Origin: an uncultured Gammaproteobacteria bacterium
GTDB taxonomy: Bacteria > Patescibacteriota > Microgenomatia > Levybacterales > GWA1-39-11
Assembly (NCBI GenBank): GCA_964409875.1
Contig: CAYPEN010000002.1
Span: 338,630 to 402,629 of the forward strand
Length of the DNA: 64,000 nt
Direction of reading: 5' to 3'
Both the position numbers and the translations under genes were made by a program. Position 1 is the first letter of the stretch. Every line of letters starts with the position of its first letter. Positions 18,555 to 57,707 of the stretch are shown here, piece after piece. Below the pieces are notes generated by a model that searched no databases, was not told the DNA's origin, and was given only the letters and a program-made list of their open reading frames with translations.

Positions 18555-19364
18555 ATGCTTGAAACACTGAAAAAAGAGTGGGAAGCAAAGGTAATACTCG
18601 GAATTTTTCTCCTGTATGTTGCGTGGTGGGCATACATGCAATTGGCTCTTCCTCATGACAACATACTGTATGCATTGTACGGCCAGTCATATGGAGTAAT
18701 TGCGCTTGTTGGTGGAATTTGGGGATTATTTGTGGCAAGAAAATGGGGAGGCTTAAAGAGCATTATGGGAAAGGCAATTATTATGTTTTCCCTTGGTCTT
18801 TTTGCCCAAGAATTCGGACAGATAGCATACACTTATTATATTTTCGTTGAGCATATAGAAATTCCCTACCCTTCAATTGGCGATATCGGATTTTTCGGTA
18901 CGATCCCTTTTTATATATATGGAGCCTATCTTTTGGCAAAAGCATCGGGAGTAAAAATTTCCCTTCGTTCGTTTGGAAACAAATTACAGGCAATTCTTAT
19001 CCCCATTGTTATGGTTGGAGTATCTTACATTCTGTTTTTACATAATTATCAGCTTGATTTTTCGCATCCTCTTAAGTCATTTCTGGATTTTGGGTATCCC
19101 TTAGGTCAGGCAATATATGTATCTATTGCTATATTTACGTATGTAGCGACCAGGAAACTTTTGGGGGGAATTATGAGGCCCAAAGTTCTTGTCATTTTAT
19201 TTGCATTTGTCGCACAATTCTTATCGGATTATTCGTTTATATATTTTCAAGACAAATATTATCCCGGCCACTTCATAGATTTGGTATATACAGCTTCGTA
19301 TATGATAATGGCAATTGGCATACTTGAATTAAAAACTGTTTATAACCAACTCCATCGAGGATAA
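18555..19364 (+). CDS. Hypothetical polytopic membrane protein (7-8 TM)
   Basis: 269 aa, very hydrophobic, divergent from the DUF2156 gene. Confidence 0.5.
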   Translation: MLETLKKEWEAKVILGIFLLYVAWWAYMQLALPHDNILYALYGQSYGVIALVGGIWGLFVARKWGGLKSIMGKAIIMFSLGLFAQEFGQIAYTYYIFVEHIEIPYPSIGDIGFFGTIPFYIYGAYLLAKASGVKISLRSFGNKLQAILIPIVMVGVSYILFLHNYQLDFSHPLKSFLDFGYPLGQAIYVSIAIFTYVATRKLLGGIMRPKVLVILFAFVAQFLSDYSFIYFQDKYYPGHFIDLVYTASYMIMAIGILELKTVYNQLHRG

Positions 19365-19367
19365 TGT

Positions 19368-19652
19368 ATGCAAAATGATGTATATGCCCAAATGGCCGAA
19401 AAAATAATCAAGGTTCAAGAGAACATTATCGGGCCGATTGCTCTTGAGCAGGCCGAAAAAGTGCAGGGGTTAAAAATTGATTGGAAAAAACACGACATTA
19501 AGTTTGAAGGTAATCAAAAAGATATTGTCGGCAAACTTGTTGAGAGGTACGAAAAACTTTTCGGACAAACGTCAGTTGAAATGTGCAAAGATGCGGTAAA
19601 AAGTATAACCTCTCAAGTGGCTTCGTCTGATTTACCTGCTCTTCTTCAATAG
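19368..19652 (+). CDS. Hypothetical small soluble protein
   Basis: 94 aa with no recognisable motif. Lies 3 nt after the upstream membrane protein and just upstream of the histidine kinase. Confidence 0.4.
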   Translation: MQNDVYAQMAEKIIKVQENIIGPIALEQAEKVQGLKIDWKKHDIKFEGNQKDIVGKLVERYEKLFGQTSVEMCKDAVKSITSQVASSDLPALLQ

Positions 19653-19687: not shown

Positions 19688-21133
19688 ATGAACTCTGCCC
19701 AGAAAGATGATAATGTTCCTCCTGCTGTAAATTCCGTCGTATCAAACAACAATCTCTCTTCAGAGCTTGAGCACGTTACTCAAGAGATGTATAAGAAAAA
19801 TGCGGAATTGTTCCATACCAATAAGACGCTCTCCCTACTTCAGAAAATAGAGGCAATTATTCTAAGTTCAGTTACCGATTTATGGCAAGTAGCGCAACAA
19901 GTTGCCGATGTTATTGCTTCGGAAGCCGAATTCAAGCGGGTATCAATTTTTATAATCAACGAGCAGGATGGATTGGTGAGACTTGCAGCTTCAAGCGGTG
20001 AGGCAGTAGCTCGGGCCGAGTTTTTAGTAAAAAAACAATTCCCGAGCCTTCGGATACCGCTTCATAACGAGACCAATCTTTTAGTAAGAGTCGCAAAAAC
20101 CGCACGTCTTCAGTATACCAATAACTATTTTGATATTCTGACACCCGAATTTACACCTCAAGAGGCAGCAATAATACAACAGACCCTTAACACAAAATCA
20201 ATATATGCACATCCATTAGTAATTCGTGGTGAGGTTATTGGGGTATTATCCATAAGTCTTGGCGAGACCACTCCGGACATATCGGATTATGAGCGTGACC
20301 TTATGGAGCGGCTAGCTGGAATTATAGGAATCGCGATTGATAATTCACTCTTGTATAAGGATATACAAGAGGCAAATGAAAAACTGAAACAGCTGGATAA
20401 ACTGAAAGACGAATTTGTTTCTCTTGCCTCTCACGAATTAAGAACTCCGATGACTGTTATTAAGTCTTACATCTGGATGTTATTGGAAGGAAAAGTTGGT
20501 GACCTTTCAGAAAAACAAAAATCATACTTAGAACGGACTTATACTTCTACCGACAGACTTATCAATATGGTCAATGACATGTTGAATATTTCGCGAATCG
20601 AGTCGGGTAGGCTTACGATAGAACCGAAGGCACTTTCTATGTCTTCCCTTATTCAGGAGGTTGTAGGCGAAATGCAAACAAGAGCCAGTGAGCAACAGCT
20701 TGCATTAGTGTTTGCATCTCCTCAAGGAGAAATGCCGGATGTTTTTGCTGACCCTGACAAAATAAAACAAGTTCTCATCAACCTTATAGGAAATTCTCTC
20801 AAATTTACACCTCAAGGAGGAAACATCACACTTATTTGTGAGCAAAAAGACGGATATATTGTTACTCATGTGAAAGATACCGGAAAAGGAATAAAGAGTG
20901 AGGATATGGATAAGTTATTTAAGAAATTCAATATGCTTGGAGGAAATTATCTGACAAAACAGGCAGGACAAGGTACCGGTCTAGGACTATACTTATCGAA
21001 ATCATTGATAGAATTACATAAAGGTCGCATTTGGGTATCATCAGCGGGCGAGGGGAAGGGAACAACATTCTCATTCTCACTTCCTATTATGCAAGCTATA
21101 CAGCTCCAGCAGGTTGAGCAAGATACAGCTTGA
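19688..21133 (+). CDS. Soluble sensor histidine kinase with N-terminal GAF-like domain
   Basis: H-box FVSLASHELRTPMTVIKSY, N-box NLIGNSLKFT, G-boxes DTGKGI and GTGLGL. No TM helices. Confidence 0.85.
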   Translation: MNSAQKDDNVPPAVNSVVSNNNLSSELEHVTQEMYKKNAELFHTNKTLSLLQKIEAIILSSVTDLWQVAQQVADVIASEAEFKRVSIFIINEQDGLVRLAASSGEAVARAEFLVKKQFPSLRIPLHNETNLLVRVAKTARLQYTNNYFDILTPEFTPQEAAIIQQTLNTKSIYAHPLVIRGEVIGVLSISLGETTPDISDYERDLMERLAGIIGIAIDNSLLYKDIQEANEKLKQLDKLKDEFVSLASHELRTPMTVIKSYIWMLLEGKVGDLSEKQKSYLERTYTSTDRLINMVNDMLNISRIESGRLTIEPKALSMSSLIQEVVGEMQTRASEQQLALVFASPQGEMPDVFADPDKIKQVLINLIGNSLKFTPQGGNITLICEQKDGYIVTHVKDTGKGIKSEDMDKLFKKFNMLGGNYLTKQAGQGTGLGLYLSKSLIELHKGRIWVSSAGEGKGTTFSFSLPIMQAIQLQQVEQDTA

Positions 21134-21485
21134 CTTCTTTTATTAAGTCCCCAGGGGTAATTTGACTTTTAATTAGATACCCGGTTCCTAAGAGAAGGGC
21201 TTCTTTGATTTCTTCCCCTTTATCAAGGTTAGTTAAAAATATAATGCTTTTATTGGGAACTTGCGGTTGAGGCATTTCTTTTGCTTTTTTTGCCACCTCA
21301 AGTCCGGATAACTTGGGCATAATAATGTCCAACAAGACTAAATCCCAGCCTCCTTGAGATAATTTTTGTAGCGCATCTTCTCCATCAACAGCAGTTGTAA
21401 CCTGATACCCTTCTGTTTTTAGAATGTCTGCGTATAGTTCACGCAAAAACTCATCATCTTCGGCGATCAATATCTTCTTTTCCAT
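21096..21485 (-). CDS. Single-domain response regulator (CheY-like receiver only)
   Basis: KILIAEDDEFLRELY ... DLVLLDIIMPKLSG ... receiver motifs, 129 aa, no output domain. Its 3' end overlaps the convergent kinase by 38 nt. Confidence 0.8.
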   Translation of the reverse strand: MEKKILIAEDDEFLRELYADILKTEGYQVTTAVDGEDALQKLSQGGWDLVLLDIIMPKLSGLEVAKKAKEMPQPQVPNKSIIFLTNLDKGEEIKEALLLGTGYLIKSQITPGDLIKEVKLYLAQPAGAV

Positions 21486-21536
21486 AGGAAAATAATCGTA
21501 CCATCAACAAAGAATGAAAGTCAATGAATTCGAGGC

Positions 21537-22028
21537 TTAACGTGTCACCGAAATTGTTTGTGACAACTCGGCTGCGGGTGCAGCGACAGTGATTCTACTA
21601 TCAGTTGTGCTTCTACCAATAGTATAATTTGTATTATAAGTGGCACCGCAGTTAGTGACAGGGCTTCCGTTATTGGTCAATGGATCAACCGGAAGTGCTG
21701 CCATATATTGTGAAGTTAATACCGCACAAAGGTCAGCGCGCGCTGCGATGCCTGCATCGTTTGTTATTGTACAGGGAGCGGCTGGTGTACAAGATACAGC
21801 AATACCCGGAGGAAGTGCGCCTTTGTTGTCTGCTGCATATTGCCCAACTGCATTCAGGATTGCATTAACATCGCTTGACCTCTTCGTATTGTTTGCTTGT
21901 GAGAATTGCCTTGCAGGGTTAATAGCGATAAGAGTGATTGCAAGAAGAACTGCAAGAATTCCGATAACTACCAACAACTCAATCAAAGTGAAACCTTTTT
22001 GGGATTTTCTGAGGTGGGCAAGCTTCAT
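21537..22028 (-). CDS. Type IV major pilin (prepilin with class III signal peptide)
   Basis: MKLAHLRKSQKG|FTLIELLVVIGILAVLLAITLIAINP cleavage/methylation motif, 163 aa. Paralogue of the adjacent gene. Confidence 0.8.
   Translation of the reverse strand: MKLAHLRKSQKGFTLIELLVVIGILAVLLAITLIAINPARQFSQANNTKRSSDVNAILNAVGQYAADNKGALPPGIAVSCTPAAPCTITNDAGIAARADLCAVLTSQYMAALPVDPLTNNGSPVTNCGATYNTNYTIGRSTTDSRITVAAPAAELSQTISVTR
21876..21956. repeat. 81-bp near-identical direct repeat, copy 1 (5' region of pilin gene)
   Basis: Matches 22356-22436 at 80/81 positions. The two copies are exactly 480 bp apart and cover the conserved prepilin N-terminal helix. Confidence 0.8.
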
Positions 22029-22031
22029 AAA

Positions 22032-22505
22032 TTAGCGGGTAACCGTAATTGTTTGACCAAGCTCTGCTGCAGGAGCAGTTACAGTGATTCTATTATCAGA
22101 TGCTGAACGAACTACAGTGTAGTTGGTATTATAATTTGCAGTGCAGTCAGTGATAGGAGTTCCGTTATTAGTCAATGGATCAACAGGAAGCGCAGCCATA
22201 TATTGAGTGACAAGTGCAGCGCAAATATCTGCATCGTTGGCGGGTGTTCCACTCTTTTGAATCGTAAGTGCTGATGTTGTTATTCCTGCTGGAAGCGTGC
22301 CCTTGTTATCGGCTGCATATTGACCGATAGCATTTAAGATTGCATTTACATCAGATGACCTCTTCGTATTGTTTGCTTGCGAGAATTGCCTTGCAGGGTT
22401 AATAGCGATAAGAGTGATTGCAAGAAGAACTGCAAGGATACCAATGACTACAAGAAGCTCGATGAGAGTGAAACCTTTTTGATTTTTCAACTGGGCAGTT
22501 TTCAT
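22032..22505 (-). CDS. Type IV major pilin, tandem paralogue
   Basis: MKTAQLKNQKG|FTLIELLVVIGILAVLLAITLIAINP. Start placed at the MKTAQ Met; the ORF track extends 7 codons further upstream. Confidence 0.8.
   Translation of the reverse strand: MKTAQLKNQKGFTLIELLVVIGILAVLLAITLIAINPARQFSQANNTKRSSDVNAILNAIGQYAADNKGTLPAGITTSALTIQKSGTPANDADICAALVTQYMAALPVDPLTNNGTPITDCTANYNTNYTVVRSASDNRITVTAPAAELGQTITVTR
22356..22436. repeat. 81-bp near-identical direct repeat, copy 2
   Basis: See copy 1; a single mismatch (t/c at 21900 vs 22380). Confidence 0.8.
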
Positions 22506-22633
22506 ATCTGTATCTATCATAATCATAATTGTTTTTTTGTGTCAAGACCCAATTTAAGAGAATTACAAATGAAAAGTATACTGAAAATTTGAGGTTAAAA
22601 TACCAAAAAAGCGTCTTTTGAAGAAATATTCTA

Positions 22634-23341
22634 CTATTTCATGTTAAGTAGCATAAATCCTAAGATAGCAAATAAGATAATAAAAACTCCTATCATGGCA
22701 AACAATCTGATGTTGCTCTTTTTTTGTTGTGGTTCTTTTTTTGCACTTGTCTGTTGAGAGGAGGGTGGTCTGTCTTTCTCAAGAGTAAGCATTGATATCT
22801 GCTTGTAGTTGCCAGTCTTTCTTAAGAATTGCATAGCATTATCAACGGTTAAGTTCTGAATAAGCTCTTTGTCATTTCCAAGCATATTGTAGGGAATAAT
22901 CATTTCAAAGTTAAATCCGGCTTTCTCAAAACTCACCTTCAATTCTTGGAAGAGATCTTCATTGAAGCCAATAACTTTTACCCCTTTTTCTATGGGGTAA
23001 TTTTTTGACATCGTACTGTCAAATGGGATAGTATCAACAAATTTTCTTACGGCATCCTCCTGTTCCTCGGCCGGCAAGCCGGTTATTTCCTTTTCGAAAG
23101 TAATATTGGGAGAGAGGATTATTGTAATTAATGCAGGAGTAATTCGGTATTGCTCGATAAAATTTTTCACCTGCCCAAGAATTGAGGCTCCATTGATTAC
23201 ATCCATATCTTTTACCGAAGTTTCAAGGAATGCCATACTTATAACTGTAGGTAAACCGTTCTCAAAAAAGTAGAACCCGTTCCTATCCAGGTAAAGTAAT
23301 GCCGGTTGTTTTTTTGCGAATTCCATCAGATCTCCTTCCAA
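22634..23341 (-). CDS. Hypothetical pilus-locus protein with C-terminal TM anchor (tail-anchored)
   Basis: 235 aa. Soluble N-terminal domain, a Gln/Ser/Lys-rich linker, then one TM helix at the extreme C-terminus (LFAMIGVFIILFAILGFMLL). Lies inside the pilus operon; function unknown. Confidence 0.45.
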   Translation of the reverse strand: MEGDLMEFAKKQPALLYLDRNGFYFFENGLPTVISMAFLETSVKDMDVINGASILGQVKNFIEQYRITPALITIILSPNITFEKEITGLPAEEQEDAVRKFVDTIPFDSTMSKNYPIEKGVKVIGFNEDLFQELKVSFEKAGFNFEMIIPYNMLGNDKELIQNLTVDNAMQFLRKTGNYKQISMLTLEKDRPPSSQQTSAKKEPQQKKSNIRLFAMIGVFIILFAILGFMLLNMK

Positions 23342-23709
23342 GAAGTTGCGGTTAGAGTATTGTTGCTCGTATCAACGATTACCTGAATAGTTCTTGTAAA
23401 GTTATTCAATGTTCCTTTTGATAGTATCGTTTTTGGGTTAGTTCCGGTAATCGTAATGACTGCTTGTCCACTTCCGACCGTCAACGTCTCGCCCGTATAA
23501 TTCGGGTCTCTTAATAATTTAATCATAGCAGTTTCGGCACCACTTTCTGCAATATCCAGAGAGTTCGCTCCTTGATATATTTTATCTGTCCCCTTAGAAC
23601 TGTTGATGACAAGCGCAATTGATGCGGTCGTAACCACTATCGCAATTATCATATATGTCAACAAGACAATAAGCGTTTGGCCTTTTTGTTTGTGGAATGA
23701 ATTTTTCAT
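23326..23709 (-). CDS. Minor pilin, PilX-like N-terminus
   Basis: MKNSFHKQKGQTLIVLLTYMIIAIVVTTASIAL resembles PilX_N-type hydrophobic N-termini (no Glu at +5). 127 aa. Confidence 0.5.
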   Translation of the reverse strand: MKNSFHKQKGQTLIVLLTYMIIAIVVTTASIALVINSSKGTDKIYQGANSLDIAESGAETAMIKLLRDPNYTGETLTVGSGQAVITITGTNPKTILSKGTLNNFTRTIQVIVDTSNNTLTATSWKEI

Positions 23710-24200
23710 CTGAGTCCTGCGGTTGTTTGGAATATTTGTTGATCTGAAATTCCTCTTGTGGTGACGTTCCCTGAAACCGTAAAGTTAATTCTGACGGTGT
23801 CTTTTGCGCTTGGGCTTCCCACTTTAGTAAAAAGCAGGTTCGAAACCGATGACCCTTCCCCATTCAATACATAAGAACCTGTGGGGTCTGTTACTACAAT
23901 GTTGTTGTTGGTCAACGAATACGTGTAATTTTGTCCACCTATCACAAGTTTCATCGTTGCAGATGTACTCCCAAAAACTGAAGGTTCTGTCACTTGAGAA
24001 GCACGTCCTACATCGTAAATAAACCGTGAGTAAATATATCTCCCGTCATCTGCCACATTTGATGTATTTTTAGAACCCAATTGATTGTCAATAATTGTTG
24101 TAAATATATCCGTAAAGATGAGCACCAAAACAGTAAGAAGCCCCATATATATGAGAAGTTCGACCAGTGTGAATCCTCCTTGTTTTTTTGACTGTTTCAT
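23706..24200 (-). CDS. Minor (pseudo)pilin with prepilin-type cleavage/methylation motif
   Basis: MKQSKKQGG|FTLVELLIYMGLLTVLVLIF, 164 aa. Confidence 0.7.
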   Translation of the reverse strand: MKQSKKQGGFTLVELLIYMGLLTVLVLIFTDIFTTIIDNQLGSKNTSNVADDGRYIYSRFIYDVGRASQVTEPSVFGSTSATMKLVIGGQNYTYSLTNNNIVVTDPTGSYVLNGEGSSVSNLLFTKVGSPSAKDTVRINFTVSGNVTTRGISDQQIFQTTAGLR

Positions 24201-27163
24201 TATGGTGAGTAATTGATGTTTGCATCAAGAATCGTGGGAGTTACATTGAAATCGGTAGTTGAGAGAAATGCCTTATATCTTACGCATTGGGCGGGGTTTT
24301 GAAAACCGGCAATACCCGTGAGTGGTATTGCACCGCCGCTCGAAGGGAAAAACGTGTTTGCGGTACCGTCTGGTCCTACATACACGTAGGAGGCATTAGT
24401 GCAGGAACCATTTACAGGCATAGTTGCGGCGACTTGAAATTGAAGCGTACTGTTTGCAGGGACTGTTGTGGTTGTAGAAAGTCTGTTGAGTGCTGCAACA
24501 CTGCCGAGGTCTTGCGGAGCAGACTCATACGTTCCTGTATCAAGATAGGTTCCGTCAGGTCCACCTTGGATAATCTTGAGCTCGTTTGCACCGGTGTTTG
24601 ATACAAGGTACGCGAATTTATCGTTATCTGCTTCGGTGACTGAGGCAAGGTCTGAGAAGCCCTGGTTAAAATCAAGGCTGCCGCAATATGTTGGAGAGGA
24701 CTCATTACTGATATTGATTACTTGGTATTCAGAGGCATTATTGCTGTTTGAGATTCCGTCTTTTCCAACAATAATTGCCCGCGAACCGTTGAATACGGTT
24801 AGTGAGCGTCGCGGATAGAGTTCAGCATTGGCGCCGCTTCCATAGTAATATCCGCTTGTTGCTCCACTCGAAGGAGTACCGGTTAAGAATTTAGGTGCAG
24901 ACTTGTTGGATGTGTCAAGAATGTAAAATTGCCAGCTGTCAGGAACACCATCATTGTTTGCATCCACAGTTCCATTGGAAGAAATATAGGCGCGTGTTGC
25001 ATCAGGGCTTGCAAAAACTGAATTGGCCGTTTCTTGCGTGTTCGCATTTGAATTGAAGTCAAGCGAACTTATTCTTTTCCATCCTGCATTGCCGCTTGCA
25101 ATAGTCCCGCAGGTAGTATTACTTACAGCAGGACTTGTGCTACCTGATGGCACACTGGACACATTTGCGATATCAAATTCCGGGTCGGTTCCGGCTCCTA
25201 CAGCAACATACACATACGTGTTGGCTCCAACTTTCACAGGATAGATATCGTTGTCCGCATAAATTTGGGTGTTTCCACCATCCACGCATGCGGTTTGTCC
25301 TGCAGATTCTGAACCCCAATTGGTGCCAGTGCTCCCGGCTGCGTACTTGCGAATCTTGCTTGTTGTTGCATTACAATCATATCCATCAAGCTCTATACGG
25401 CAGCCTACCATATCAAGTCCATTGGAAGGCGTTTTGCTGTCAATATTGCTTAGGTCAAATGTATAAAGAAATCCGCCTGAAATGGCGTATCCCTTGTCAT
25501 CAAGAACAGCTATTGAAGCAGCACCGGCACCATAAGGGGCTTGGTCACTTGTTGTAAGAGTGCCTCCACTGAAGTGGACTTTTACTGCAACCCAGTCAAG
25601 AGAAAATGTTCGTGATGTAGTACTTGCAACATCTATTACACGTACTCGAAAGTTGGCATCAGAAAAATCAGAATTGCTCCACGTCCTTCCCCAATTATCT
25701 GATGCGCTCCCGAGGGTATATGTTGCATTTGAAGTTGTAAGATTGCCTGTCGATTGTGCGCTTGTCCATGTAGTGCCTCCATCCCACGACAGTTGAACAC
25801 ATATCTTGGGTGTGCCCGTCGTGCTATCCGTCTTTCCGTCAATGCGGACCTCAATTCCATCAATTGTTCCGCCGGTCGGAAGGGAAATTCCGTAATTATA
25901 GAATCTGTGTCTATCTTTATCAGAACCCGTGCAATTTGTTCCGGTTCCGTTCCCGCTATTGGTGTCTGTTGCATACGAATTGTTGGAGGAATAGGCACGG
26001 GTTGCATTCGTTTCGTAGCCGTTTCCGTCTCCTCCGGAATCGGCAGCATTTGCGGTTGGACTCAAAAAACCAGTGTCGAGTCCGGTACCCGGCTGGTAAA
26101 TTTTTGTATCAAAATACGTCCAGTATTTATATATCTTATTAACGTAGTCCTGATACTCGCCATTATTTGTGTTGTCATTGGAGGGGTCGTTGTCATCAAC
26201 AAGGACTGCAATAACTTCGTGGTCCGGTTTTGTCGTTGCGATAAGAGCATAAAGTTTTCCGGAACTCGATTTGTAATACTTTACCGCGTTCGTAATGAAA
26301 CTATTATCCAATCCTGGCGTTGAGGGAACCCATCCAGGGTTGCTGTATTTTGTCGCATCAAGCGTGAAAGTTCCCCTCAGTGTTGGGACAGGAGGGTCGG
26401 TATTGGCTGTCACTTTTACATGGGCAAGTTTGTACGAATTTGTTGTATTAGGAGAAATTGCGACAAACACATCGTTAGGTATATTAATGCTTTGTGCGCT
26501 GGCGGTTGCGGATACTGCCACCGGAGGACCATCAGGTAGGGTGATTGTGGCGCTTGAAAAACTCGGTGAGCACCATTTCCCTTTGGTGTTAGGCGCAAGA
26601 GTAATCTCCCCTCCAGACGAATTGGTAACCGATGTATCGGAGAGTGTACCGGCGTTGAAATCGGCTTCAGTTGTTTGTGTTTTTACAGCGTTTTGTAAGT
26701 AGCGCGTGACGTATATGGTCGAATCAACAGAAGAAGCGTAAGGTTGTCCCCATGTGACTTGGATATATACCTTTTTGGTAGAAGGATCAAATGTTCCACC
26801 GTTGTCAACAATTGCCCCGTTGCTATCTCTATACACATCGCTTACCGTGATTGTTCTGGTCAAGCCGTTTACCGTTTCACTTCCCGAGGCAAACGCCCAG
26901 TTGTTTCCTGAGATCAGCGGATGGTATGTGCCATTAACAGAGAAGAGTGACCACCCTTGCCCACGGACATTTCGTACAACTTCTTCTGCCTCTTTCATAA
27001 GAGCTACTGCTTGGACCCGCTGTCCTTGCTGGGCCTTGCCCTGTTTTGATGAGAACAGTCCCGTTAAAAGAGCAGGGAGCATAATTGCAGTGATTGCTAT
27101 CGCCAAAAGCATCTCTACGAGTAGCTGTCCTCTTTGGTTAGTCGATTTGGATAATCGTTCCAT
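24200..27163 (-). CDS. Giant pilin-like protein: prepilin-type N-terminus fused to ~950-aa Ser/Thr/Asn/Gly-rich extracellular region (tip-adhesin candidate)
   Basis: N-terminus MERLSKSTNQRGQ|LLVEMLLAIAITAIMLPALL has G at -1 and E at +5. The remaining ~950 aa are Ser/Thr/Asn/Gly/Asp-rich with many predicted beta segments. Start chosen at the second Met; the ORF track starts 11 codons earlier (27196). Confidence 0.65.
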   Translation of the reverse strand: MERLSKSTNQRGQLLVEMLLAIAITAIMLPALLTGLFSSKQGKAQQGQRVQAVALMKEAEEVVRNVRGQGWSLFSVNGTYHPLISGNNWAFASGSETVNGLTRTITVSDVYRDSNGAIVDNGGTFDPSTKKVYIQVTWGQPYASSVDSTIYVTRYLQNAVKTQTTEADFNAGTLSDTSVTNSSGGEITLAPNTKGKWCSPSFSSATITLPDGPPVAVSATASAQSINIPNDVFVAISPNTTNSYKLAHVKVTANTDPPVPTLRGTFTLDATKYSNPGWVPSTPGLDNSFITNAVKYYKSSSGKLYALIATTKPDHEVIAVLVDDNDPSNDNTNNGEYQDYVNKIYKYWTYFDTKIYQPGTGLDTGFLSPTANAADSGGDGNGYETNATRAYSSNNSYATDTNSGNGTGTNCTGSDKDRHRFYNYGISLPTGGTIDGIEVRIDGKTDSTTGTPKICVQLSWDGGTTWTSAQSTGNLTTSNATYTLGSASDNWGRTWSNSDFSDANFRVRVIDVASTTSRTFSLDWVAVKVHFSGGTLTTSDQAPYGAGAASIAVLDDKGYAISGGFLYTFDLSNIDSKTPSNGLDMVGCRIELDGYDCNATTSKIRKYAAGSTGTNWGSESAGQTACVDGGNTQIYADNDIYPVKVGANTYVYVAVGAGTDPEFDIANVSSVPSGSTSPAVSNTTCGTIASGNAGWKRISSLDFNSNANTQETANSVFASPDATRAYISSNGTVDANNDGVPDSWQFYILDTSNKSAPKFLTGTPSSGATSGYYYGSGANAELYPRRSLTVFNGSRAIIVGKDGISNSNNASEYQVINISNESSPTYCGSLDFNQGFSDLASVTEADNDKFAYLVSNTGANELKIIQGGPDGTYLDTGTYESAPQDLGSVAALNRLSTTTTVPANSTLQFQVAATMPVNGSCTNASYVYVGPDGTANTFFPSSGGAIPLTGIAGFQNPAQCVRYKAFLSTTDFNVTPTILDANINYSP

Positions 27164-27617
27164 ATTTATTAAAGTGTAATGTTTTTGTCTTTCCACTTGA
27201 TGTATTTGTTAGGGTAATTGTGTTTTGTCCTTGCACGAATCCAACTATTTCTCCGCTTTCAGAGGCAAAAAGAATTGTCGTGTTGGGGAATGTAGAGCTT
27301 AGAGTGTAACCGCTTTCAACCGGTACGGAAAAATTAGTCGTGTCTGCGGGATTGTAACTTGCTCCATGAAAGAGAACATATTGGTTAGAAAGAATTTTTA
27401 CCCCATAATTATCTGGAGTTCCTCTTCCTTCTGTATCGCCTACCATAGCCTTTATCTGTTGGTTCTTAAGATCTGAAGTTAAAACTGAAGCGGTTGAACT
27501 GTTTGTTGAAATGACCCGTACATTAAAAATACTAATAAAAGTTATTGAAAAAAGTAATCCAAGGATTCCGACAACGATAAGAAGTTCAACGAGTGTCAGT
27601 CCTTTATTTGAGGACAT
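27138..27617 (-). CDS. Pilin-like protein (prepilin-type N-terminus)
   Basis: MSSNKG|LTLVELLIVVGILGLLFSITFISIF, 159 aa from this Met. The ORF track's longer 207-aa form adds a non-hydrophobic leader that is unlikely to be real. Confidence 0.65.
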   Translation of the reverse strand: MSSNKGLTLVELLIVVGILGLLFSITFISIFNVRVISTNSSTASVLTSDLKNQQIKAMVGDTEGRGTPDNYGVKILSNQYVLFHGASYNPADTTNFSVPVESGYTLSSTFPNTTILFASESGEIVGFVQGQNTITLTNTSSGKTKTLHFNKYGTIIQID

Positions 27618-27717
27618 AAAACAATAGATATGAGGTAATAGGTGGTGCTGTTTTGTGTTTTTGTCCCACGATTTCTCCTTACTTCTATCTTTTGGCTTCT
27701 GACTTGTTGTTTTCATT

Positions 27718-28788
27718 TTAGTGTCCACCAACCTGTCCGATAAGCCCATAAATTGGGGCAATTATTGCGAGCATCATGCCTCCCACCAATACTCCGACAA
27801 ATATCAGCATTATTGGTTCAAGAAGTGTTGTAAGGGTCTTAAGCGTTTTATCGACCTGATAATCAAGATAATCGGCTACATCCTGCATTGATTTATCCAA
27901 AGAACCGCTTTTTTCACCGGCTTCCGTTATTTTTATCATGATGTTTGGAAAAATATGTTTCGCGAATTTAAGACCATCCGACAATTCGCTCCCTCCAAGT
28001 ACTACCTCTTTACAATGTGAAATCGCATCTGCAACTTCTTTTTTTAAGACAACCTCTTGCGCCAATTCAAGTGCAGCGGCTATCGGAATACCGGCGTTGA
28101 GGAGGAGAAATAGGCTGCGTGAGAATCTGGTTAAGTCTATTTGTTTTGCAAGGGTTGAAACAAGGGGAAGCATAAATAGCGCATGAAGAAACGCACGCTT
28201 CTTTTCTCTATATAGGAAGAAGAGCCCTACGACAATCAATGCAATGCCAAGAATGACAAAAACGGTATACTTGGTAAGTAGTTGCGACATACCGATTAGG
28301 ATTTGGGTAGGAAGAGGAAGGGCGACGTTCAGTCTTAAGAAAACCCCCGAAATCTTCGGTACGACAACGACAAGAATCATGGTAAGAACACCAGCAAAGA
28401 CGAAAAAGATAAGAACAGGATAGGTAAGTGCGCCTTTTATTCTGTCCATAAATTCTGCATCTTTCTTAATTGAGGTTTTAAGGTCGGTAAGCGTTACATC
28501 AAGTGTGCCTGCTTCTTCAGATGCTTTAATAAGATTTACCGTGATTTTGTCAAATACTTTCGGGAACCGGGCAAATGCATCTGAAACATGGCTTCCTTGG
28601 GATAGGTCTGCTTTGAGGCTTTCAAGCAGCTTTTTTTGGCTTCCTTTTGCATCCTCAAGCAGTGAATCGACCACTTCAAGGATGGGAATTCCTGCAGATA
28701 GCATGGTAGCAAGGTTACTCACAAGCCCCAATTTCTCGGCGGTTGAGAGTCTTAAAGATTGTGGATTTGAGTTGTTAAATAAGGCCAT
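27718..28788 (-). CDS. pilC: Type IV pilus assembly platform protein PilC (GspF/T2SS-F family)
   Basis: Two T2SSF repeats, three TM segments, 356 aa. Sits immediately downstream of pilB. Confidence 0.85.
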   Translation of the reverse strand: MALFNNSNPQSLRLSTAEKLGLVSNLATMLSAGIPILEVVDSLLEDAKGSQKKLLESLKADLSQGSHVSDAFARFPKVFDKITVNLIKASEEAGTLDVTLTDLKTSIKKDAEFMDRIKGALTYPVLIFFVFAGVLTMILVVVVPKISGVFLRLNVALPLPTQILIGMSQLLTKYTVFVILGIALIVVGLFFLYREKKRAFLHALFMLPLVSTLAKQIDLTRFSRSLFLLLNAGIPIAAALELAQEVVLKKEVADAISHCKEVVLGGSELSDGLKFAKHIFPNIMIKITEAGEKSGSLDKSMQDVADYLDYQVDKTLKTLTTLLEPIMLIFVGVLVGGMMLAIIAPIYGLIGQVGGH

Positions 28789-28794
28789 ATTAAA

Positions 28795-30483
28795 TTATAG
28801 AGATTCGACTTTAGTGACTCTTAATACTTCTTCAAGCGTGGTAACTCCACGCGAAACCTTATTGAGCCCATCATTGAGCATAGTAGTCATGCCTTCGTCT
28901 ATCGCCCGTTTTGCGATTTGGTCAGAGTCATTTTTTGCGGTTATAAGGTTGCGGATTTCCTTTGTTACCTCAAGTACTTCAAACAATCCCAGACGGCCGG
29001 TATATCCTGTCGAATGGCAGATTTTGCATCCTTTTCCGCGGTAAAGCCTGATATTCTCCTTCTCGCCGAAATGCTTGGTAATTATTGAGGAGGGGAGATT
29101 TTTTGTTAGATCAGAGCGTAAAATGTCATACGAAACTTTACACATATCACATATTTTTCGGATAAGACGCTGGCCGATGATAACGTTAACGGTTGATGCA
29201 ACAAGGAACGGTTCGACTTTCATATCAATAAGTCTGGGAAGTGCGGTTGCTGCATCATTTGTGTGGAGGGTTGAAAGAACTAGATGTCCGGTGAGAGCAG
29301 CGTTTACTGCTATACCTGCTGTTTCGCTGTCACGTATTTCTCCGACAAAAACAACATTCGGGTCTTGTCTCAAAATTGAGCGAAGACCGTTTGCAAATGT
29401 AAGGTCGGTTTTTGTATTCACATTTATTTGGTTCACTCCCTTAATACGGTATTCGACTGGGTCTTCAATCGTTGTAATGTTTTTTTCCCGGGTATTTAAA
29501 ATTTTCAGTATGGCGTATATTGAAGTTGTTTTTCCACTTCCGGTAGGACCTGTTGAGAGCACCATCCCGTACGACTTGCTGTATGCTGCAGTTACCTTCT
29601 TCAGGTCTTGTTCGCTCATCCCAAGATCAATAAGCGAGAACTGGCGAAAATGCGAGGCAAGGAGTCTTAATACAGCTTTTTCTCCATCTGCGATGGGAAG
29701 AATTGAAACGCGGATATCTAAATTCTCTTCATCAAGTTTTATCCGCATTTTTCCATCTTGAGGTGCGAGGTGTTCATCGGTTCTTAGTTTTGAAAGAATT
29801 TTAATTCTTGAAATGATGCGTTCATGGAAATTTTTTGGAAAATAAAGCACGTCATGCAAGATTCCGTCTATTCTAAATCGTACCAGTGAATCTTTTTCCT
29901 CCGGTTCTATATGAATATCCGAAACCTTGTCCTGGTAGCCGAATTCAACCAAAAGATTTACTATCTTTTCAATAGGAGCTGCGTCGGTTACTTTGGAAAC
30001 ATCCGTGATGCCCAACTCTTTCTGTAGAAGTTGCTCAAAGGACTTTTGCAAATCCCTCTTGTAAATTCTTAAAATATTGTCAATATCCCGCTCAGTTGTA
30101 AGGTAGGGGAGTACTTTAAGTCCGGTTTTTTTGCTTATTGCGGTTAAGACTTCAATGTTGCGCGGGTCGACAGTTGCAACCTTCAGTCCGTCCTTCGACT
30201 TTTCAAAAGGAATAACCTTGTGTTTACGTGCAATTTTTTCAGGTACGATGCGGAAAACATCTTCTGGTATGGTAAGCTTTGAGAGGATAATAAAAGGAAT
30301 ATGGAGAAAATCAGCAATAAGGATTCCCAGGTTTTCATCCGAGACGACGTCTTTTTCAATAAGAGCATCCACCAGGCTTACATTCGAATTTTTTGAGAAT
30401 TCCGTGAGCTCTTGTAAACTTTGCTCCGTTGCGAGTCCTGTTTTAAGGACGAGTGCTTTTATTTGATCGTCTGATAAAATCAT
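28795..30483 (-). CDS. pilB: Type IV pilus assembly ATPase PilB (GspE family)
   Basis: N-terminal GSPII_E_N-like domain. Walker A GPTGSGKTT, Asp box, Walker B and His box. Cys motif CDMCK...CKIC. 562 aa. Confidence 0.9.
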   Translation of the reverse strand: MILSDDQIKALVLKTGLATEQSLQELTEFSKNSNVSLVDALIEKDVVSDENLGILIADFLHIPFIILSKLTIPEDVFRIVPEKIARKHKVIPFEKSKDGLKVATVDPRNIEVLTAISKKTGLKVLPYLTTERDIDNILRIYKRDLQKSFEQLLQKELGITDVSKVTDAAPIEKIVNLLVEFGYQDKVSDIHIEPEEKDSLVRFRIDGILHDVLYFPKNFHERIISRIKILSKLRTDEHLAPQDGKMRIKLDEENLDIRVSILPIADGEKAVLRLLASHFRQFSLIDLGMSEQDLKKVTAAYSKSYGMVLSTGPTGSGKTTSIYAILKILNTREKNITTIEDPVEYRIKGVNQINVNTKTDLTFANGLRSILRQDPNVVFVGEIRDSETAGIAVNAALTGHLVLSTLHTNDAATALPRLIDMKVEPFLVASTVNVIIGQRLIRKICDMCKVSYDILRSDLTKNLPSSIITKHFGEKENIRLYRGKGCKICHSTGYTGRLGLFEVLEVTKEIRNLITAKNDSDQIAKRAIDEGMTTMLNDGLNKVSRGVTTLEEVLRVTKVESL

Positions 30484-30502
30484 GGGCAGTAATTATTATT
30501 TT

Positions 30503-30883
30503 TCAATCGTGTCTTTTGGACTGGTCGATTGTTTGATTTACTTTCTTCAATAAATTGTCAAAATCAAAAAAAGTCTTATTGACATAGTCTGTTGCACCAA
30601 GCCGTTTTGCCTTCTCAATATCGGCTGTTTGTCCCAAAGTCGAGAATATAATAACCGGAATACTTTCCAAACTCGGATGCTTAGATATTTCCGTAAGTAC
30701 CTCAAACCCATCCTTGTTAGGCATAATAAGGTCGAGCAACATAAGATCAGGTTTTATAACCATAATTTTTTGCAACGCCTCATTTCCATCTCCTGCCACT
30801 TCGACTTGAAAGCCCGCCTCTGTAAGCTTACGAGAATAGAAATTTTGAAAAAACAAGTCGTCTTCGGCAAGCAATATCCTCAT
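30503..30883 (-). CDS. Single-domain response regulator (CheY-like), PilG/PilH-like position
   Basis: MRILLAEDDLFFQNFY...DLMLLDLIMPNKDGFEVL...K. 126 aa, no output domain. Confidence 0.8.
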   Translation of the reverse strand: MRILLAEDDLFFQNFYSRKLTEAGFQVEVAGDGNEALQKIMVIKPDLMLLDLIMPNKDGFEVLTEISKHPSLESIPVIIFSTLGQTADIEKAKRLGATDYVNKTFFDFDNLLKKVNQTIDQSKRHD

Positions 30884-31248
30884 AAGACGTTATCTCCAAT
30901 CTTTTCCGATTCCAACTGTTTTAACTGTTTTTTTACCTCATCAAGAGATTTTTTTATTTGTTCTATAGCCTCGTTATTTGTCTGAATTATGGTTCCTTCA
31001 GGCCTGATGTAGGAAATAATCTCGGAACATATCGTGGCAATTTTTTGATATCCCATCATTTGGGACGAGCCTTTTAATGAATGAACATGTCGGAAAATCT
31101 CTTTTGCATCAGGAAATTTGTCAGAGCTAAGAAGGAGTTCTAGCACTTGAATATGCTCTTGAGCCGTTTTTAAAAACAACATATTATAACCAGCAATATC
31201 CCTGGGTGTCATGAGGTAATCATACAATATTTTTGAACTGTCTGACAA
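30880..31248 (-). CDS. Histidine phosphotransfer (HPt) domain protein
   Basis: FRHVHSLKGSSQMMG matches the HPt signature (H-x-x-KG). 122 aa, overlapping the downstream receiver gene by 4 nt. Confidence 0.6.
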   Translation of the reverse strand: MSDSSKILYDYLMTPRDIAGYNMLFLKTAQEHIQVLELLLSSDKFPDAKEIFRHVHSLKGSSQMMGYQKIATICSEIISYIRPEGTIIQTNNEAIEQIKKSLDEVKKQLKQLESEKIGDNVL

Positions 31249-31327: not shown

Positions 31328-31675
31328 ATGATAGCTTTTGTCTCTTATCCATTCTATCTCCTCTCTTTCTGGTACAAGGACGTTGTAGTCGGGTTATTTG
31401 GATTTTTTGCCGCGTTTAATATGTATGTTGCCCGGCTTTTGTCGTATCCGAGTCTTCTAAAAACCTTTTTTAAACCATTGAAAAATGAATATCGGGATGG
31501 GTTGGTGCTTTTTTCCATTTGCTTTGGGGTGATTATAAAAAGCGTATTGGTTGCTGTTAACTCGTTGATTCTTTTATTTATGTTACTTGTTGAGGTTCTT
31601 ATCCTGCTTTTTCTTGTTGTTTTACCTGTAGTGTTCTTAGTTTTGTTGTTAAGTCCGAGAGTAATATTGCGATGA
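31328..31675 (+). CDS. Small hydrophobic ORF translationally coupled (ATGA) to the ClpC paralogue; possibly a frameshifted N-terminal part of it
   Basis: 115 aa and strongly hydrophobic. Its stop TGA overlaps the ATG of the next gene, whose own first 60 residues are also hydrophobic. Confidence 0.35.
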   Translation: MIAFVSYPFYLLSFWYKDVVVGLFGFFAAFNMYVARLLSYPSLLKTFFKPLKNEYRDGLVLFSICFGVIIKSVLVAVNSLILLFMLLVEVLILLFLVVLPVVFLVLLLSPRVILR

Positions 31676-34041
31676 AAGACAACCATTATTTTCTCTATTA
31701 TTTTTTCGATAACCCGTTTATACGGTGGGCGCGGGTTATTGTATTTTTCTTCATAGGGATATTCGTCTATTTCAATCTTGAGAGCACCAGGTTTGTCATC
31801 CAAATACTGCCGGTTTATTTTTTCCTACTCCTTCAGGAATTTTTTATCCATTTTAAGCTTGAGAATAGTAGCCCGAAGAAAAAAATAACCGATAATTATA
31901 GGCATATCATTGAATGCGTCGATTATAAAACGCGGGTACTTCTTGAGCGGCATAGTGTAATTGAGGATACCATCAAAGAAATTTCCAATTTTGCAGAGGT
32001 GAAATACTTTAAGAAGCGGTTACTTTTTAATAATGTACCGTTAACAAAGGAAATCTCCGAAAAAGAAGCCCTTGAAAGAGTAAAAGATGTTGTTAAAAGC
32101 GTGAACGGAAAGTATATACATGCAATTGACATCTTTGTTTCATATCTTCTTATTCTTGATGAAAAAGAGAAATTTCTATTCGATAAGGAACTGTTTGAGA
32201 AAGACATCTTAACAGTCCTTTCATGGACAAGGCGCGAATTTCGAATTGATAGGAAGCACCATTATCATCTGACATTTACCGGAAGTGGGGCTTTCGACTT
32301 TTTCATATACGGATGGAGTACCCAAATTGCACGCGTAGCTCTCAATTTTACAAAAGAGGCGCTTATGCGGAAACGTTCCGAGCCGATAGGAAGGGAAAGC
32401 GAGTACGATCTTTTGGTGACGGCGCTCTCAAAAAATTCTTCAAGTAATGCACTTATTGTTGGGCCCGCAGGAGTTGGGAAAAGTGCGTTAGTCATGCAGT
32501 TTGCCGTCGATTCCAATCAAGGAGTATTGCCCCATGTCGTCTCCAACAAAACGGTTTTTCAACTCTTCCCCGAACGGCTTATGTCAGGAGTAGAATACCA
32601 GGGGGATTTGGAGGAACGGTTTGTGAGTGTTTTTTCGGAGCTGGCCCATGCCGGAAATATTATCGTCTACATTCCAAATATAGAAAACATTTTCGGAGGC
32701 GGAGGATTCAATATGGATATTTCAGGAGCGCTTATCGACTACCTTAACAGCAGCAGAATAAAAATAATAGGAAGCACAACCGAGAGTGCATATAAAGAAT
32801 TCGTTCTATCAAGACTTGAGATAAAAGAGCTCTTTGATACGGTTGAGATGAGAGAGCCGGATGAAGATACTGCGCTTTTTATGGTGATGGAAAAGGCGAA
32901 GGAATTAGAGTTGGTAAATCACGTATGGGTCTCATACGACGCTGTAAAAGAGTCATGTGTGTTGGCGCATTCGTATGAGACAGAAGGGATAGTGCTTCCG
33001 GGAAGTGCCGTGCATCTATTGGATGATGTTATCGCATATTGCCTGACTCACGGGAAGAAGACGGTAGATAAAAAAGAAGTACAGGCGTATGTTGCAGAAA
33101 AAAAACATATCGTTCTTGATGCGCCAACAGAGGAGGAGAGCGAAAAACTACTACAACTAGAAGCAGAAATTCACAATGAGATAGTTTCTCAAAATGAGGC
33201 AGTGACGGCTATTGCCAACGCAATGCGACGAGTACGTGCTGGGATGAAAAATGAGAACAAGCCCATTGCGTCTTTCCTCTTTTTGGGGCCGACAGGAGTC
33301 GGAAAGACTAAAACTGCAAAAGCTCTTGCCAAATCATACTTCGGGAATGAGGAGGCAATGATACGGCTTGATATGAGTGAATATCAATTGCCCGATTCTG
33401 TGGACAGATTTTTAGGAAAGCAAGGAACATATAGTGAAACAGTTCTTGATAAGGTTTCTAATAATCCTTTTTCCCTCCTGCTTCTGGACGAATTTGAAAA
33501 AGCGTATCCCCATGTTTTAGACCTCTTCTTGCAGGTCTTTGACGAAGGAAGGCTTACCGATAATTCCGGTAGAACCGTGTCTTTTGCAAATTGCATCATA
33601 ATTGCAACATCGAATGCGGGAAGCGAGTTTATCAGGGAGGCGGAAAATAGCGGCGCATCGAATGATAATTTGAAGAAAGCGCTTATTGAGAAAGTGCAGG
33701 AGGGGGGTATATTTAGGCCGGAGCTTATCAACCGTTTTGACGACGTTATTGTCTTCAAGCCCCTCACAGAAGCCGATGTGGCTAATGTTTCAAAACTCCT
33801 CTTGCAAAAAGTCATCGATGAAGCGGCTAAAAAACAGATAACACTTTCGTACGATGAGGCGGTGCCATTCTTTATAGCAAAACACGCGTATAGCATCGAG
33901 TTCGGAGCCCGCAATATCAAGCGTTTCATTGAACAATCGGTTGAGAATCAACTATCAAAGCTCATACTTTCCGGTACTCTCTCCCATGCCAGTACTGCAA
34001 AAATACTGGTGGAAGAAAACGCGCTTGTCATTAAAGTATGA
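31672..34041 (+). CDS. ClpC-like AAA+ protein paralogue with hydrophobic N-terminus and degenerate NBD1 Walker B
   Basis: NBD1 Walker A GPAGVGKSA, but the expected hhhhDE is IVYIPNIENIF (no acidic pair). NBD2 is intact: Walker A GPTGVGKTKTAK, Walker B LLLLDEFEKAYP, sensor 2 GARNIKR. The N-terminal ~60 aa are membrane-like. Confidence 0.75.
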   Translation: MKDNHYFLYYFFDNPFIRWARVIVFFFIGIFVYFNLESTRFVIQILPVYFFLLLQEFFIHFKLENSSPKKKITDNYRHIIECVDYKTRVLLERHSVIEDTIKEISNFAEVKYFKKRLLFNNVPLTKEISEKEALERVKDVVKSVNGKYIHAIDIFVSYLLILDEKEKFLFDKELFEKDILTVLSWTRREFRIDRKHHYHLTFTGSGAFDFFIYGWSTQIARVALNFTKEALMRKRSEPIGRESEYDLLVTALSKNSSSNALIVGPAGVGKSALVMQFAVDSNQGVLPHVVSNKTVFQLFPERLMSGVEYQGDLEERFVSVFSELAHAGNIIVYIPNIENIFGGGGFNMDISGALIDYLNSSRIKIIGSTTESAYKEFVLSRLEIKELFDTVEMREPDEDTALFMVMEKAKELELVNHVWVSYDAVKESCVLAHSYETEGIVLPGSAVHLLDDVIAYCLTHGKKTVDKKEVQAYVAEKKHIVLDAPTEEESEKLLQLEAEIHNEIVSQNEAVTAIANAMRRVRAGMKNENKPIASFLFLGPTGVGKTKTAKALAKSYFGNEEAMIRLDMSEYQLPDSVDRFLGKQGTYSETVLDKVSNNPFSLLLLDEFEKAYPHVLDLFLQVFDEGRLTDNSGRTVSFANCIIIATSNAGSEFIREAENSGASNDNLKKALIEKVQEGGIFRPELINRFDDVIVFKPLTEADVANVSKLLLQKVIDEAAKKQITLSYDEAVPFFIAKHAYSIEFGARNIKRFIEQSVENQLSKLILSGTLSHASTAKILVEENALVIKV

Positions 34042-57638: not shown

Positions 57639-57658
57639 CCGGTAGCTCTTTTAACCAT

Positions 57659-57679: not shown

Positions 57680-57707
57680 GATGGTTTGAAGGTGGTAGAA
57701 TACGGGT

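Follow-up and report, generated by a model that had tools for sequence, protein, structure and literature searches.

Within the window analyzed here, a 64-kb (64,000-nucleotide) stretch of contig CAYPEN010000002.1, we find a type IV pilus operon that is framed at both ends by genes for two-component signaling. A free-standing histidine phosphotransfer (Hpt) protein and a receiver-only response regulator (RR1) lie upstream of the gene for the assembly ATPase PilB. A second receiver-only response regulator (RR2) follows the major pilins, and a soluble histidine kinase with a GAF sensor domain converges upon it. From the sequence comparisons set out below, it is highly probable that these signaling proteins are functionally dedicated to this pilus. 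On balance we also favor the view that they form a His-Asp-His-Asp phosphorelay at the ends of the operon, in which phosphorylated RR1 would act on PilB, on a GspL-like membrane dock or on the platform protein PilC, and so gate pilus assembly. The four signaling genes are the following.

19688-21133, plus strand: soluble histidine kinase (Pfam GAF, HisKA and HATPase_c)
21096-21485, minus strand: RR2, receiver-only response regulator (Pfam Response_reg alone, 73 bits)
30503-30883, minus strand: RR1, receiver-only response regulator (Pfam Response_reg alone, 84 bits)
30880-31248, minus strand: free-standing Hpt protein (Pfam PF01627, 56.6 bits with a cutoff of 24.6, E = 3e-15)

The signaling proteins

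A preliminary description of this DNA had identified an Hpt protein, and the assignment passes a profile search. The residues Y21, L24, H56, K59, S62, M65 and G66 are invariant in 17 orthologues, as is the phospho-histidine motif H-[ST]-x-K-[GS]-x-S, with H56 the phospho-accepting residue. The stop codon overlaps the start of RR1 (ATGA). The source annotation begins the protein at 31212, giving 110 amino acids (aa); conservation of the N-terminus with an orthologue (P0003) favors a start at 31248. A promoter-like site just 5' of the annotated start was dismissed, since the N-terminus is conserved at the protein level further upstream.

When the Hpt family profile was compared with natural structures in the PDB, the best matches were CheA P1 domains (E about 1e-13), with Ypd1 and plant AHP proteins reaching only about 1e-4. 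Exhaustive search of 1.84 billion representatives returned 2,336 relatives. About 26 clusters of these are free-standing proteins of 88-125 aa, and the remainder are mostly very large proteins with multiple Hpt domains, whose whole-protein scores are inflated by the repeats and establish class membership only. By Pfam, three of the largest contain several Hpt domains together with HATPase_c and/or CheW, one of them with a receiver in addition. An alignment restricted to Levyibacteria has the single pattern HSLKGSS, and its metagenome matches are mostly CheA P1 domains of other phyla. By sequence the Hpt protein belongs to the CheA-P1/ChpA class, and this makes the earlier analogy with PilG and PilH an apt one. 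No CheA, CheW or methyl-accepting chemotaxis protein (MCP) domain was found in the scanned open reading frames (ORFs) of the window, for which the earlier statement of a free-standing Hpt protein without CheA holds, or in the 10-kb flanks of any Microgenomates locus. The window contains no further receiver, kinase or Hpt gene.

The two regulators are receiver-only, as had been proposed; Pfam detects no DNA-binding or enzymatic output domain in either. Both active sites are intact (D8, D9, D51, T82, Y100 and K103 in RR1; D10, D11, D53, T85, Y103 and K106 in RR2), and the catalytic residues are conserved in all their orthologues. The Thr/Tyr switch pair is kept in both receivers, so that an intermediate and a terminal receiver are not told apart by it. 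RR1 and RR2 are 36% identical. RR1 belongs to a tight family of 342 proteins, the top 120 being at least 58% identical. Among solved structures the closest to either receiver are generic (the YycF receiver, Thermotoga RR468 and CheY), with no special affinity to any pilus regulator, and the 'FATGUY' motif of some receiver-only proteins is found in neither RR1 (FSTLGQ) nor RR2 (FLTNLD). We propose that RR1 is the terminal receiver, with PilB as its target, and that RR2 is the intermediate receiver and cognate partner of the kinase.

The Pfam domains of the kinase and the lack of any hydrophobic segment agree with the earlier reading of a soluble GAF histidine kinase that converges on the operon, overlapping RR2 by 38 nucleotides (nt; 21096-21133). 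Its H box and its N, G1 and G2 boxes are present (H249, N369, D397 and G429). Two further genes lie on the same side.

18555-19364, plus strand: membrane protein of 269 aa, the first gene of the kinase-side trio, with at least three strongly hydrophobic segments and no profile match
19368-19652, plus strand: soluble protein of 94 aa (u94), co-directional with the kinase, function unassigned, with no profile match

The 269-aa and 94-aa proteins may be signal-input partners of the soluble GAF kinase. The idea that the 269-aa protein is a divergent prepilin peptidase was rejected, as there is no match to the Peptidase_A24 profile.

Conservation of the framing across lineages

We compared 25 PilB-anchored and three RR1-anchored loci. 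The PilB of the window is 97% identical to that of two Candidatus Levyibacteriota contigs from metagenome-assembled genomes among the PilB-anchored loci from reference genomes, and 61-68% identical to more distant relatives in Roizmanbacteria and Gottesmanbacteria. By these comparisons the source organism is a member of Candidatus Levyibacteriota, a tiny-genome Microgenomates bacterium of the candidate phyla radiation (CPR). Many contigs at 84-97% PilB identity (L001-L010, L013, L017-L020 and L025) bear the title 'uncultured Gammaproteobacteria bacterium'. Their gene content and named relatives are those of Levyibacteriota and Microgenomates, and the titles therefore appear to be wrong or placeholders.

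A structural core is common to all lineages, comprising PilB, PilC, four pilin-like genes, the GspL-like gene and one to three major pilins. In Levyibacteria, Roizmanbacteria and further lineages this same cluster is framed by the signaling genes, with Hpt-RR1 preceding pilB and RR2 following the pilins. Wherever RR1 occurs, its gene is the immediate upstream neighbor of pilB, and the framing persists across these lineages at 61-64% identity of PilB and RR1. Three relatives of RR1 (61-63% identity) that were picked solely because they lie on long contigs show the same framing, and one of them has the convergent kinase too, followed by genes for proteins of 93 and 270 aa.

Convergent orthologues of the kinase are found in L002, L003, L006, L007, L009 and L056. 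The L019 kinase runs in the same direction as a gene for an RR2-type receiver 4 nt downstream of it. Of the module's parts the kinase is the least constant, being adjacent only in Levyibacteria, L056 and L019. The 269-aa and 94-aa genes are conserved beside it in L002, L007, L009 and L056.

Where both ends of a PilB locus are covered by sequence, the window included, 11 loci have both ends of the module, five have neither and one has the upstream part only (Fisher p = 0.001 for co-occurrence of the two ends, without phylogenetic correction). On the PilB tree the clusters lacking the module fall in at least three to four separate places (L008, L004/L005, L010 and L021) among those that bear it; L013 also lacks the upstream Hpt-RR1 pair. 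RR2 occurs only alongside Hpt-RR1, and where Hpt-RR1 has been lost RR2 and the kinase are missing as well. About 9 kb separates the two ends, and the flank on the Hpt side is the same whether the module is present or absent. Repeated joint loss of ends so far apart is hard to explain unless both ends work together. These sequence patterns suggest that the signaling genes are an accessory module that is kept or lost whole.

The preliminary description had proposed a comparison of synteny, and across lineages we find the signaling genes framing the same pilus cluster, with both ends lost together in at least three to four branches. Conserved framing, joint loss and the fusions described below tie the Hpt and receiver genes to the pilus operon. 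The neighborhood is thus not accidental. Neither of the outcomes that would have spoken against the connection was found: the Hpt protein is recognized by its profile, and by their gene order and joint loss the signaling genes do not look like parts of unrelated regulons.

In two relay-less Levyibacteria the major pilin is followed by a gene for a secreted protein of about 380 aa (L004:18529-19671 and L005:18394-19527), Kelch or beta-propeller-like by eye, and then by DnaJ. In the window about 5 kb lies between DnaJ and the pilins, encoding an AdoMet decarboxylase, an EamA transporter, an LPG-synthase-C protein, a membrane protein, u94, the kinase and RR2. From this comparison the RR2 side of the module sits within a larger indel.

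Fusions and distant relatives

In L011 a single protein of 248 aa, in which Hpt is joined to a receiver (REC) domain, is encoded directly upstream of pilB. The 480-aa ORF immediately upstream of this gene (L011:7255-8697) is transposase-like by reading of its translation, and the locus may have been rearranged.

An unrelated soil bacterium of 65% GC (L045-L047) has the domains in the other order, as a REC-Hpt fusion of 268-270 aa (L045:638-1441). Its stop codon runs into the start of the next gene, for a PilB of 742 aa with a receiver fused at its C-terminus (MshEN, T2SSE and Response_reg; L047:624-2849). A membrane sensor-like gene follows PilB-REC, for which the JGI label is only PilB or 'GspE/ActR-like'.

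In Rokubacteria/Methylomirabilota (L030, L034, L037 and L041) a HisKA kinase with three GAF domains, a receiver of 152 aa, a receiver of 147 aa and pilB lie on one strand (L041:8060-13368, where the pilB ORF looks frameshifted). The receiver next to pilB is 46% identical to RR1 without gaps, compared with 36% between RR1 and RR2. It scores 122.7 bits on the RR1 model, whereas the CheY of the same organism scores 44.9. A complete CheA and a CheY are encoded nearby on the other strand.

In distant phyla a receiver is again coupled directly to PilB, be it as a neighboring gene or as a fusion. This recurrence suggests a general CheA-free way of regulating type IV pili, alongside the Pil-Chp and c-di-GMP routes.

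A proposed phosphorelay and its alternatives

To our knowledge, and in keeping with established two-component biochemistry, a non-hybrid HisKA kinase cannot phosphorylate an Hpt protein without an intermediate receiver. One kinase, two receivers and one Hpt protein are the exact parts list of a four-step relay. We suggest that the soluble GAF kinase would sense an intracellular ligand or state, possibly with the 269-aa and 94-aa proteins, and would autophosphorylate on H249. The phosphoryl group would pass from the kinase to D53 of RR2, from RR2 to H56 of the CheA-P1-type Hpt protein, and from there to D51 of RR1. Phosphorylated RR1, having no output domain, would contact the PilB motor, the GspL-like dock or PilC and thereby gate assembly. 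In this scheme we infer in what order the phosphoryl group moves, on what RR1 acts and with which sign; the domains, catalytic residues, framing, concerted loss and fusions are those observed above.

Each link of the proposed chain is backed by adjacency or fusion somewhere among the sequences. That between kinase and RR2 rests on their adjacency in two orientations, convergent in Levyibacteria and L056 and co-directional in L019. The link between a receiver and Hpt is provided by the REC-Hpt fusion of the soil bacterium, and that between Hpt and RR1 by the ATGA overlap together with the Hpt-REC fusion of L011. RR1 is linked to PilB by the gap of only 19 nt, by its constant position upstream of pilB, by PilB-REC in L047 and by the RR1-like receiver in Rokubacteria. 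The output step of RR1 has experimental precedent. The single-domain regulator EmvR binds to PilB and inhibits its ATPase (PMC11973254), DrdR, which is receiver-only, binds both PilB and PilT (PMC13507683), and phosphorylated PixG binds the extension ATPase PilB1 (PMC11181946).

The preliminary description had suggested a minimal phosphorelay controlling extension or retraction. A relay linked to the pilus is supported by the sequence evidence. Control of retraction in particular has no support, since none of the Microgenomates loci has pilT at a distance of 10 kb or less from pilB. We propose the exact linear order, with PilB as the target, more tentatively, the arguments drawn from sequence falling slightly short of an even balance.

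Several observations weigh against the relay as drawn. Roizmanbacteria and L054 have no kinase next to the cluster, so that only some lineages argue for assigning it to the relay. In L011, the one cluster with only the upstream signaling gene, the Hpt-REC fusion is present but no RR2 lies nearby. The receivers in the REC-Hpt and PilB-REC fusions score 41-50 bits on the RR1 and RR2 models alike, and since they are not specifically RR1- or RR2-like, the fusions back the logic of the relay, not orthology. The Rokubacteria operon lacks a free-standing Hpt and is equally compatible with a branched and a linear design. Lastly, the only site in PilB, PilC or the dock that changes with loss of the relay is PilB D144, in the linker after the MshEN-like domain. 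It is invariant in 16 relay-bearing clusters and changed in three of five relay-less lineages, which is not significant, and we treat it as noise.

The main rival is a branched scheme like that of PilG and PilH, which we consider unlikely on present evidence. In this scheme the kinase phosphorylates RR1 and RR2 directly, one receiver activating the motor while the other is an antagonist or sink, and Hpt shuttles or buffers phosphate reversibly. Antagonistic receiver pairs are established on type IV pilus motors, as PixG/PixH (PMC11181946) and PilG/PilH (PMC12632253). The full catalytic set and the Thr/Tyr switch pair in both receivers would suit such a role, as would the Rokubacteria arrangement of GAF kinase, receiver, RR1-like receiver and PilB on one strand without a free-standing Hpt. 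However, the Hpt protein is always paired with RR1, through the ATGA overlap and by fusion in L011, which points to Hpt as the donor of RR1. It is moreover the RR2 type of receiver, not the RR1 type, that adjoins the kinase in both orientations, and a REC-Hpt fusion feeding a PilB-REC fusion is a linear layout.

Two other explanations place part or all of the signaling elsewhere. The relay might be only physically linked to the pilus and control expression via a partner, cell division, host attachment, or a PilT encoded elsewhere. A receiver-only regulator may act on many targets, the Pfam searches reveal no DNA-binding or enzymatic output domain that would single one out, and the test of site-level co-variation was negative. 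We nevertheless find this improbable, given that the same cluster is framed across lineages at 61-64% identity of PilB and RR1 and that both ends have been lost together repeatedly. A receiver is fused to PilB in another phylum, an RR1-like receiver lies upstream of pilB in Rokubacteria, and the 22 related Microgenomates loci all lack a second T2SSE ATPase within 10 kb of pilB. Alternatively the Hpt protein could be the detached P1 domain of a CheA encoded elsewhere, in a reduced Pil-Chp system, with the GAF kinase and RR2 forming a separate pair. The nearest matches of the Hpt profile are indeed CheA P1 domains and ChpA/CheA proteins with several Hpt domains, and the kinase is not adjacent in many lineages. 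This we judge very improbable, because CheA, CheW and MCP domains are absent from the window and from the 10-kb flanks of the Microgenomates loci, a closed Microgenomates genome has been reported to lack chemotaxis genes (PMC7143001), and RR2 and the kinase are lost together with Hpt-RR1.

Returning to the four-protein relay of GAF kinase, RR2, P1-type Hpt and RR1, it is possible, though somewhat doubtful, that it is a portable pilus module of Microgenomates, gained or lost as a unit, with RR1 gating PilB directly. RR1 would then belong to a cross-phylum family of PilB-coupled receivers that takes in those of Rokubacteria and the PilB-REC fusions of soil bacteria. If true, an intracellular signal would reach pilus assembly without any CheA. 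Pili have been proposed to mediate host contact or DNA uptake in Patescibacteria (PMC7143001), and the relay would probably be the switch for host attachment or DNA uptake in these episymbiont-like bacteria. The parts are small and defined, and the soluble kinase, Hpt, two receivers of about 125 aa, PilB and the GspL-like dock could be purified and reconstituted from sequence. Relay-less relatives provide natural 'knock-out' comparisons. The module is a simple, testable model for pilus control in uncultured symbionts.

Comparison with known systems

Control of a pilus motor by receiver-only regulators is already known. The Pil-Chp system of Pseudomonas aeruginosa (ChpA, PilG and PilH, the latter two acting antagonistically; PMC12632253) and the Tax1 system of Synechocystis (PixL, PixG and PixH) likewise have two CheY-like regulators without DNA-binding output and an Hpt of the CheA-P1 class for a type IV pilus motor. 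In contrast, the window and the related loci have neither a CheA core nor CheW or an MCP. The Hpt protein is free-standing, at about 120 aa, and the only kinase is a class-I HisKA enzyme with a GAF sensor. The signaling genes lie inside the structural operon and not in a separate chemosensory operon, and RR1 lacks the PATAN domain of PixG.

EmvR of Xanthomonas oryzae and DrdR of X. campestris are also receivers without an output domain, and they bind PilB and change its ATPase activity (PMC11973254, PMC13507683), as we propose for RR1. They are however orphan genes that are not next to pilB, they have no Hpt, and they come from diderm Proteobacteria with complete PilMNOPQ and PilT.

The KinA-Spo0F-Spo0B-Spo0A pathway of Bacillus and the CckA-ChpT-CtrA/CpdR pathway of Caulobacter are four-component phosphorelays of separate proteins. 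Of their components, Spo0F is a receiver-only intermediate, and CpdR, likewise receiver-only, stands at the end of its pathway and works through contact with other proteins. The proposed relay resembles these pathways in its His-Asp-His-Asp logic, its receiver-only intermediate and its separate phosphotransferase. It differs in that the phosphotransferase is a monomeric four-helix Hpt of the CheA-P1 class and not a Spo0B or ChpT dimer, that the terminal regulator has no DNA-binding domain, and that all the parts are wired to one structural operon.

The pilus loci 1 and 2 of Saccharibacteria TM7x and that of Microgenomates Ch65 are alike in having PilB, PilC, a PilM-type protein, several pilins and no secretin. 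A retraction ATPase, too, is missing from TM7x locus 2 (PMC11623550). In the window a single GspL-like, fusion-type protein takes the place of separate PilM, PilN and PilO. Compared by their descriptions, which mention no response regulator, kinase or Hpt, these loci differ from the one described here. In the TM7x preprint those terms are absent, and the control of pilus extension and retraction in Patescibacteria is called an open question (PMC11623550).

The operon of Rokubacteria/Methylomirabilota also brings together a GAF-HisKA kinase, two receiver-only proteins and PilB. It differs in that all of its genes are co-directional and upstream of pilB, that its kinase has three GAF domains, and that it has no free-standing Hpt and a complete CheA and CheY nearby. 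No functional description of this kinase-receivers-PilB operon was found in the literature.

What is new is a free-standing Hpt of the P1 class and two receivers embedded at both ends of a structural operon, a class-I GAF kinase as the input without CheA, CheW or MCP, the occurrence of such a system in CPR bacteria, and its behavior as a unit that is lost or kept whole. We did not find this arrangement described in the searchable literature, the coverage of which is incomplete, so that a prior description is possible.

The pilus machinery

All the ORFs of the preliminary description were recovered at its coordinates and on its strands. The minus-strand cluster contains 12 genes, nine structural and three signaling, and not the 11 counted earlier. 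The structural genes are as follows.

28795-30483, minus strand: PilB-type assembly ATPase with an MshEN-like N-terminal domain (Pfam T2SSE 425 bits, MshEN 59 bits)
27718-28788, minus strand: PilC/GspF-type platform protein, N-terminally short, 356 aa (Pfam T2SSF twice)
27138-27761, minus strand: minor pilin, ORF of 207 aa (N_methyl; TIGR02532 on a 159-aa version)
24200-27196, minus strand: giant pilin-like protein of 998 aa (prepilin-like N-terminus RG|QLLVEML; weak N-terminal match to ComGE)
23706-24200, minus strand: minor pilin of 164 aa (N_methyl 28.9 bits; GG|FTLVELL)
23326-23709, minus strand: small pilin-like protein of 127 aa (KG|QTLIVLL, without Glu5), conserved in all clusters
22634-23341, minus strand: GspL/PilM-like protein of 235 aa (u235), with a short cytoplasmic domain of actin-like fold joined by a disordered linker to a C-terminal membrane helix
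22032-22526, minus strand: major pilin copy 1 (pilA1; N_methyl 38.8 bits; closest NCBIfam model GspG)
21537-22028, minus strand: major pilin copy 2 (pilA2; N_methyl 38.6 bits), a paralogue of copy 1 (E = 3e-71)

Overlaps of 1-16 nt had been described throughout. We find overlaps at five of the 11 junctions and gaps of 3-107 nt at the other six, which leaves the arrangement operon-like. The gaps are 19 nt (RR1 to PilB), 6 nt (PilB to PilC), about 100 nt (PilC to where the following pilin probably begins), 107 nt (u235 to pilA1, the longest), 3 nt (pilA1 to pilA2) and 51 nt (pilA2 to RR2). A scan for promoters and terminators gave 46 promoter-like sites compared with 32 expected from shuffled sequences. 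The sole match of note is a good sigma70-like site at 22545-22516, within the 107-nt gap before the first major pilin.

The cluster is a monoderm-type type IV filament machine, with PilB, PilC/GspF, a GspL/PilM-like dock, four minor pilins and two major pilins. Judged by profile scores, it is a divergent one, with PilB, PilC (GspF) and the pilin (GspG) falling below equivalog cutoffs. With the NCBIfam models PilB scores 536 bits as type IVa pilus PilB and 525 bits as GspE, both below cutoff. PilC scores 243 bits as GspF, also below cutoff, in an alignment that begins at profile position 56. The two c-di-GMP-binding motifs known from MshEN domains appear, by eye, to be broken in the N-terminus of PilB.

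The class III prepilin signature is found by N_methyl in four ORFs, to which the giant pilin adds RG|QLLVE. The 207-aa pilin ORF has been called too long. Its probable true start is near 27617, at a canonical prepilin leader (MSSNKG|LTLVELL), and its orthologues measure 157-175 aa. The giant pilin has no Pfam domain and is modular, with residues 1-180 and 801-998 conserved. Orthologues of about 650 aa (L003, L006, L016 and L021) lack about 190 residues (330-519) and shorter stretches including 602-655. It is probably a tip adhesin with a variable insert in the middle. The 127-aa protein has no profile match, and in lacking Glu5 it resembles GspK/PilX. The major pilins vary from one to three copies between genomes.

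The protein u235 had been called an unknown tail-anchored protein. The membrane anchor stands, and we can now place the rest at the level of fold. An AlphaFold2 model built with 32 homologues has a mean predicted local distance difference test (pLDDT) score of 85.5 and a predicted template modeling (pTM) score of 0.72. A Foldseek search with this model gave 33 matches at E<=1e-3, with TM-scores of 0.26-0.43. They are the cytoplasmic domain of EpsL/GspL (including a complex with the GspE ATPase), PilM and FtsA, along with one uncharacterized protein of actin-like ATPase fold (3hrg). There is no sequence-profile match, and the PilM/GspL assignment is made at fold level only. The protein is conserved in every cluster, and long orthologues from Roizmanbacteria add an extracellular LytR_C domain. 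On its modeled architecture, which is that of GspL, u235 is probably the membrane dock for PilB.

The absence of pilT and pilD from the window was stated earlier and is upheld, as there is no second T2SSE ATPase in the 64 kb and no Peptidase_A24 match among the scanned ORFs. The same statement for pilMNOQ is partly overturned, in that a PilM-type component is present at fold level. Beyond the window, none of 22 related Microgenomates loci has a second T2SSE gene within 10 kb of pilB.

Surroundings of the cluster

The window has no tRNA gene and no match to an Rfam family, and there is hence no riboswitch or other RNA element to consider. The genes around the cluster are housekeeping genes (among them MetRS, HrcA-GrpE-DnaK-DnaJ, ClpB, TGT, NusA and IF-2). 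A ClpB-like protein of 789 aa with two AAA+ domains (31328-34041) has two N-terminal hydrophobic segments, and its start is overlapped by 4 nt by a preceding ORF of 115 aa with four transmembrane segments. This pair is the divergent neighbor of the pilus cluster in Levyibacteria with or without the relay. A membrane-anchored ClpB-like protein is unusual.

Elsewhere in the window (56517-58265) a secreted protein of 373 aa with a C-terminal LPATG motif, a hydrophobic stretch and a charged tail is encoded by the gene immediately before that for a sortase (57708-58265; Pfam Sortase, 88 bits). Ahead of this pair lie genes for two proteins with signal peptides and without Pfam domains (52791-54074 and 54183-56453). 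From its gene content, this region may be a sortase-dependent surface-protein or pilus locus, distinct from the type IV pilus.

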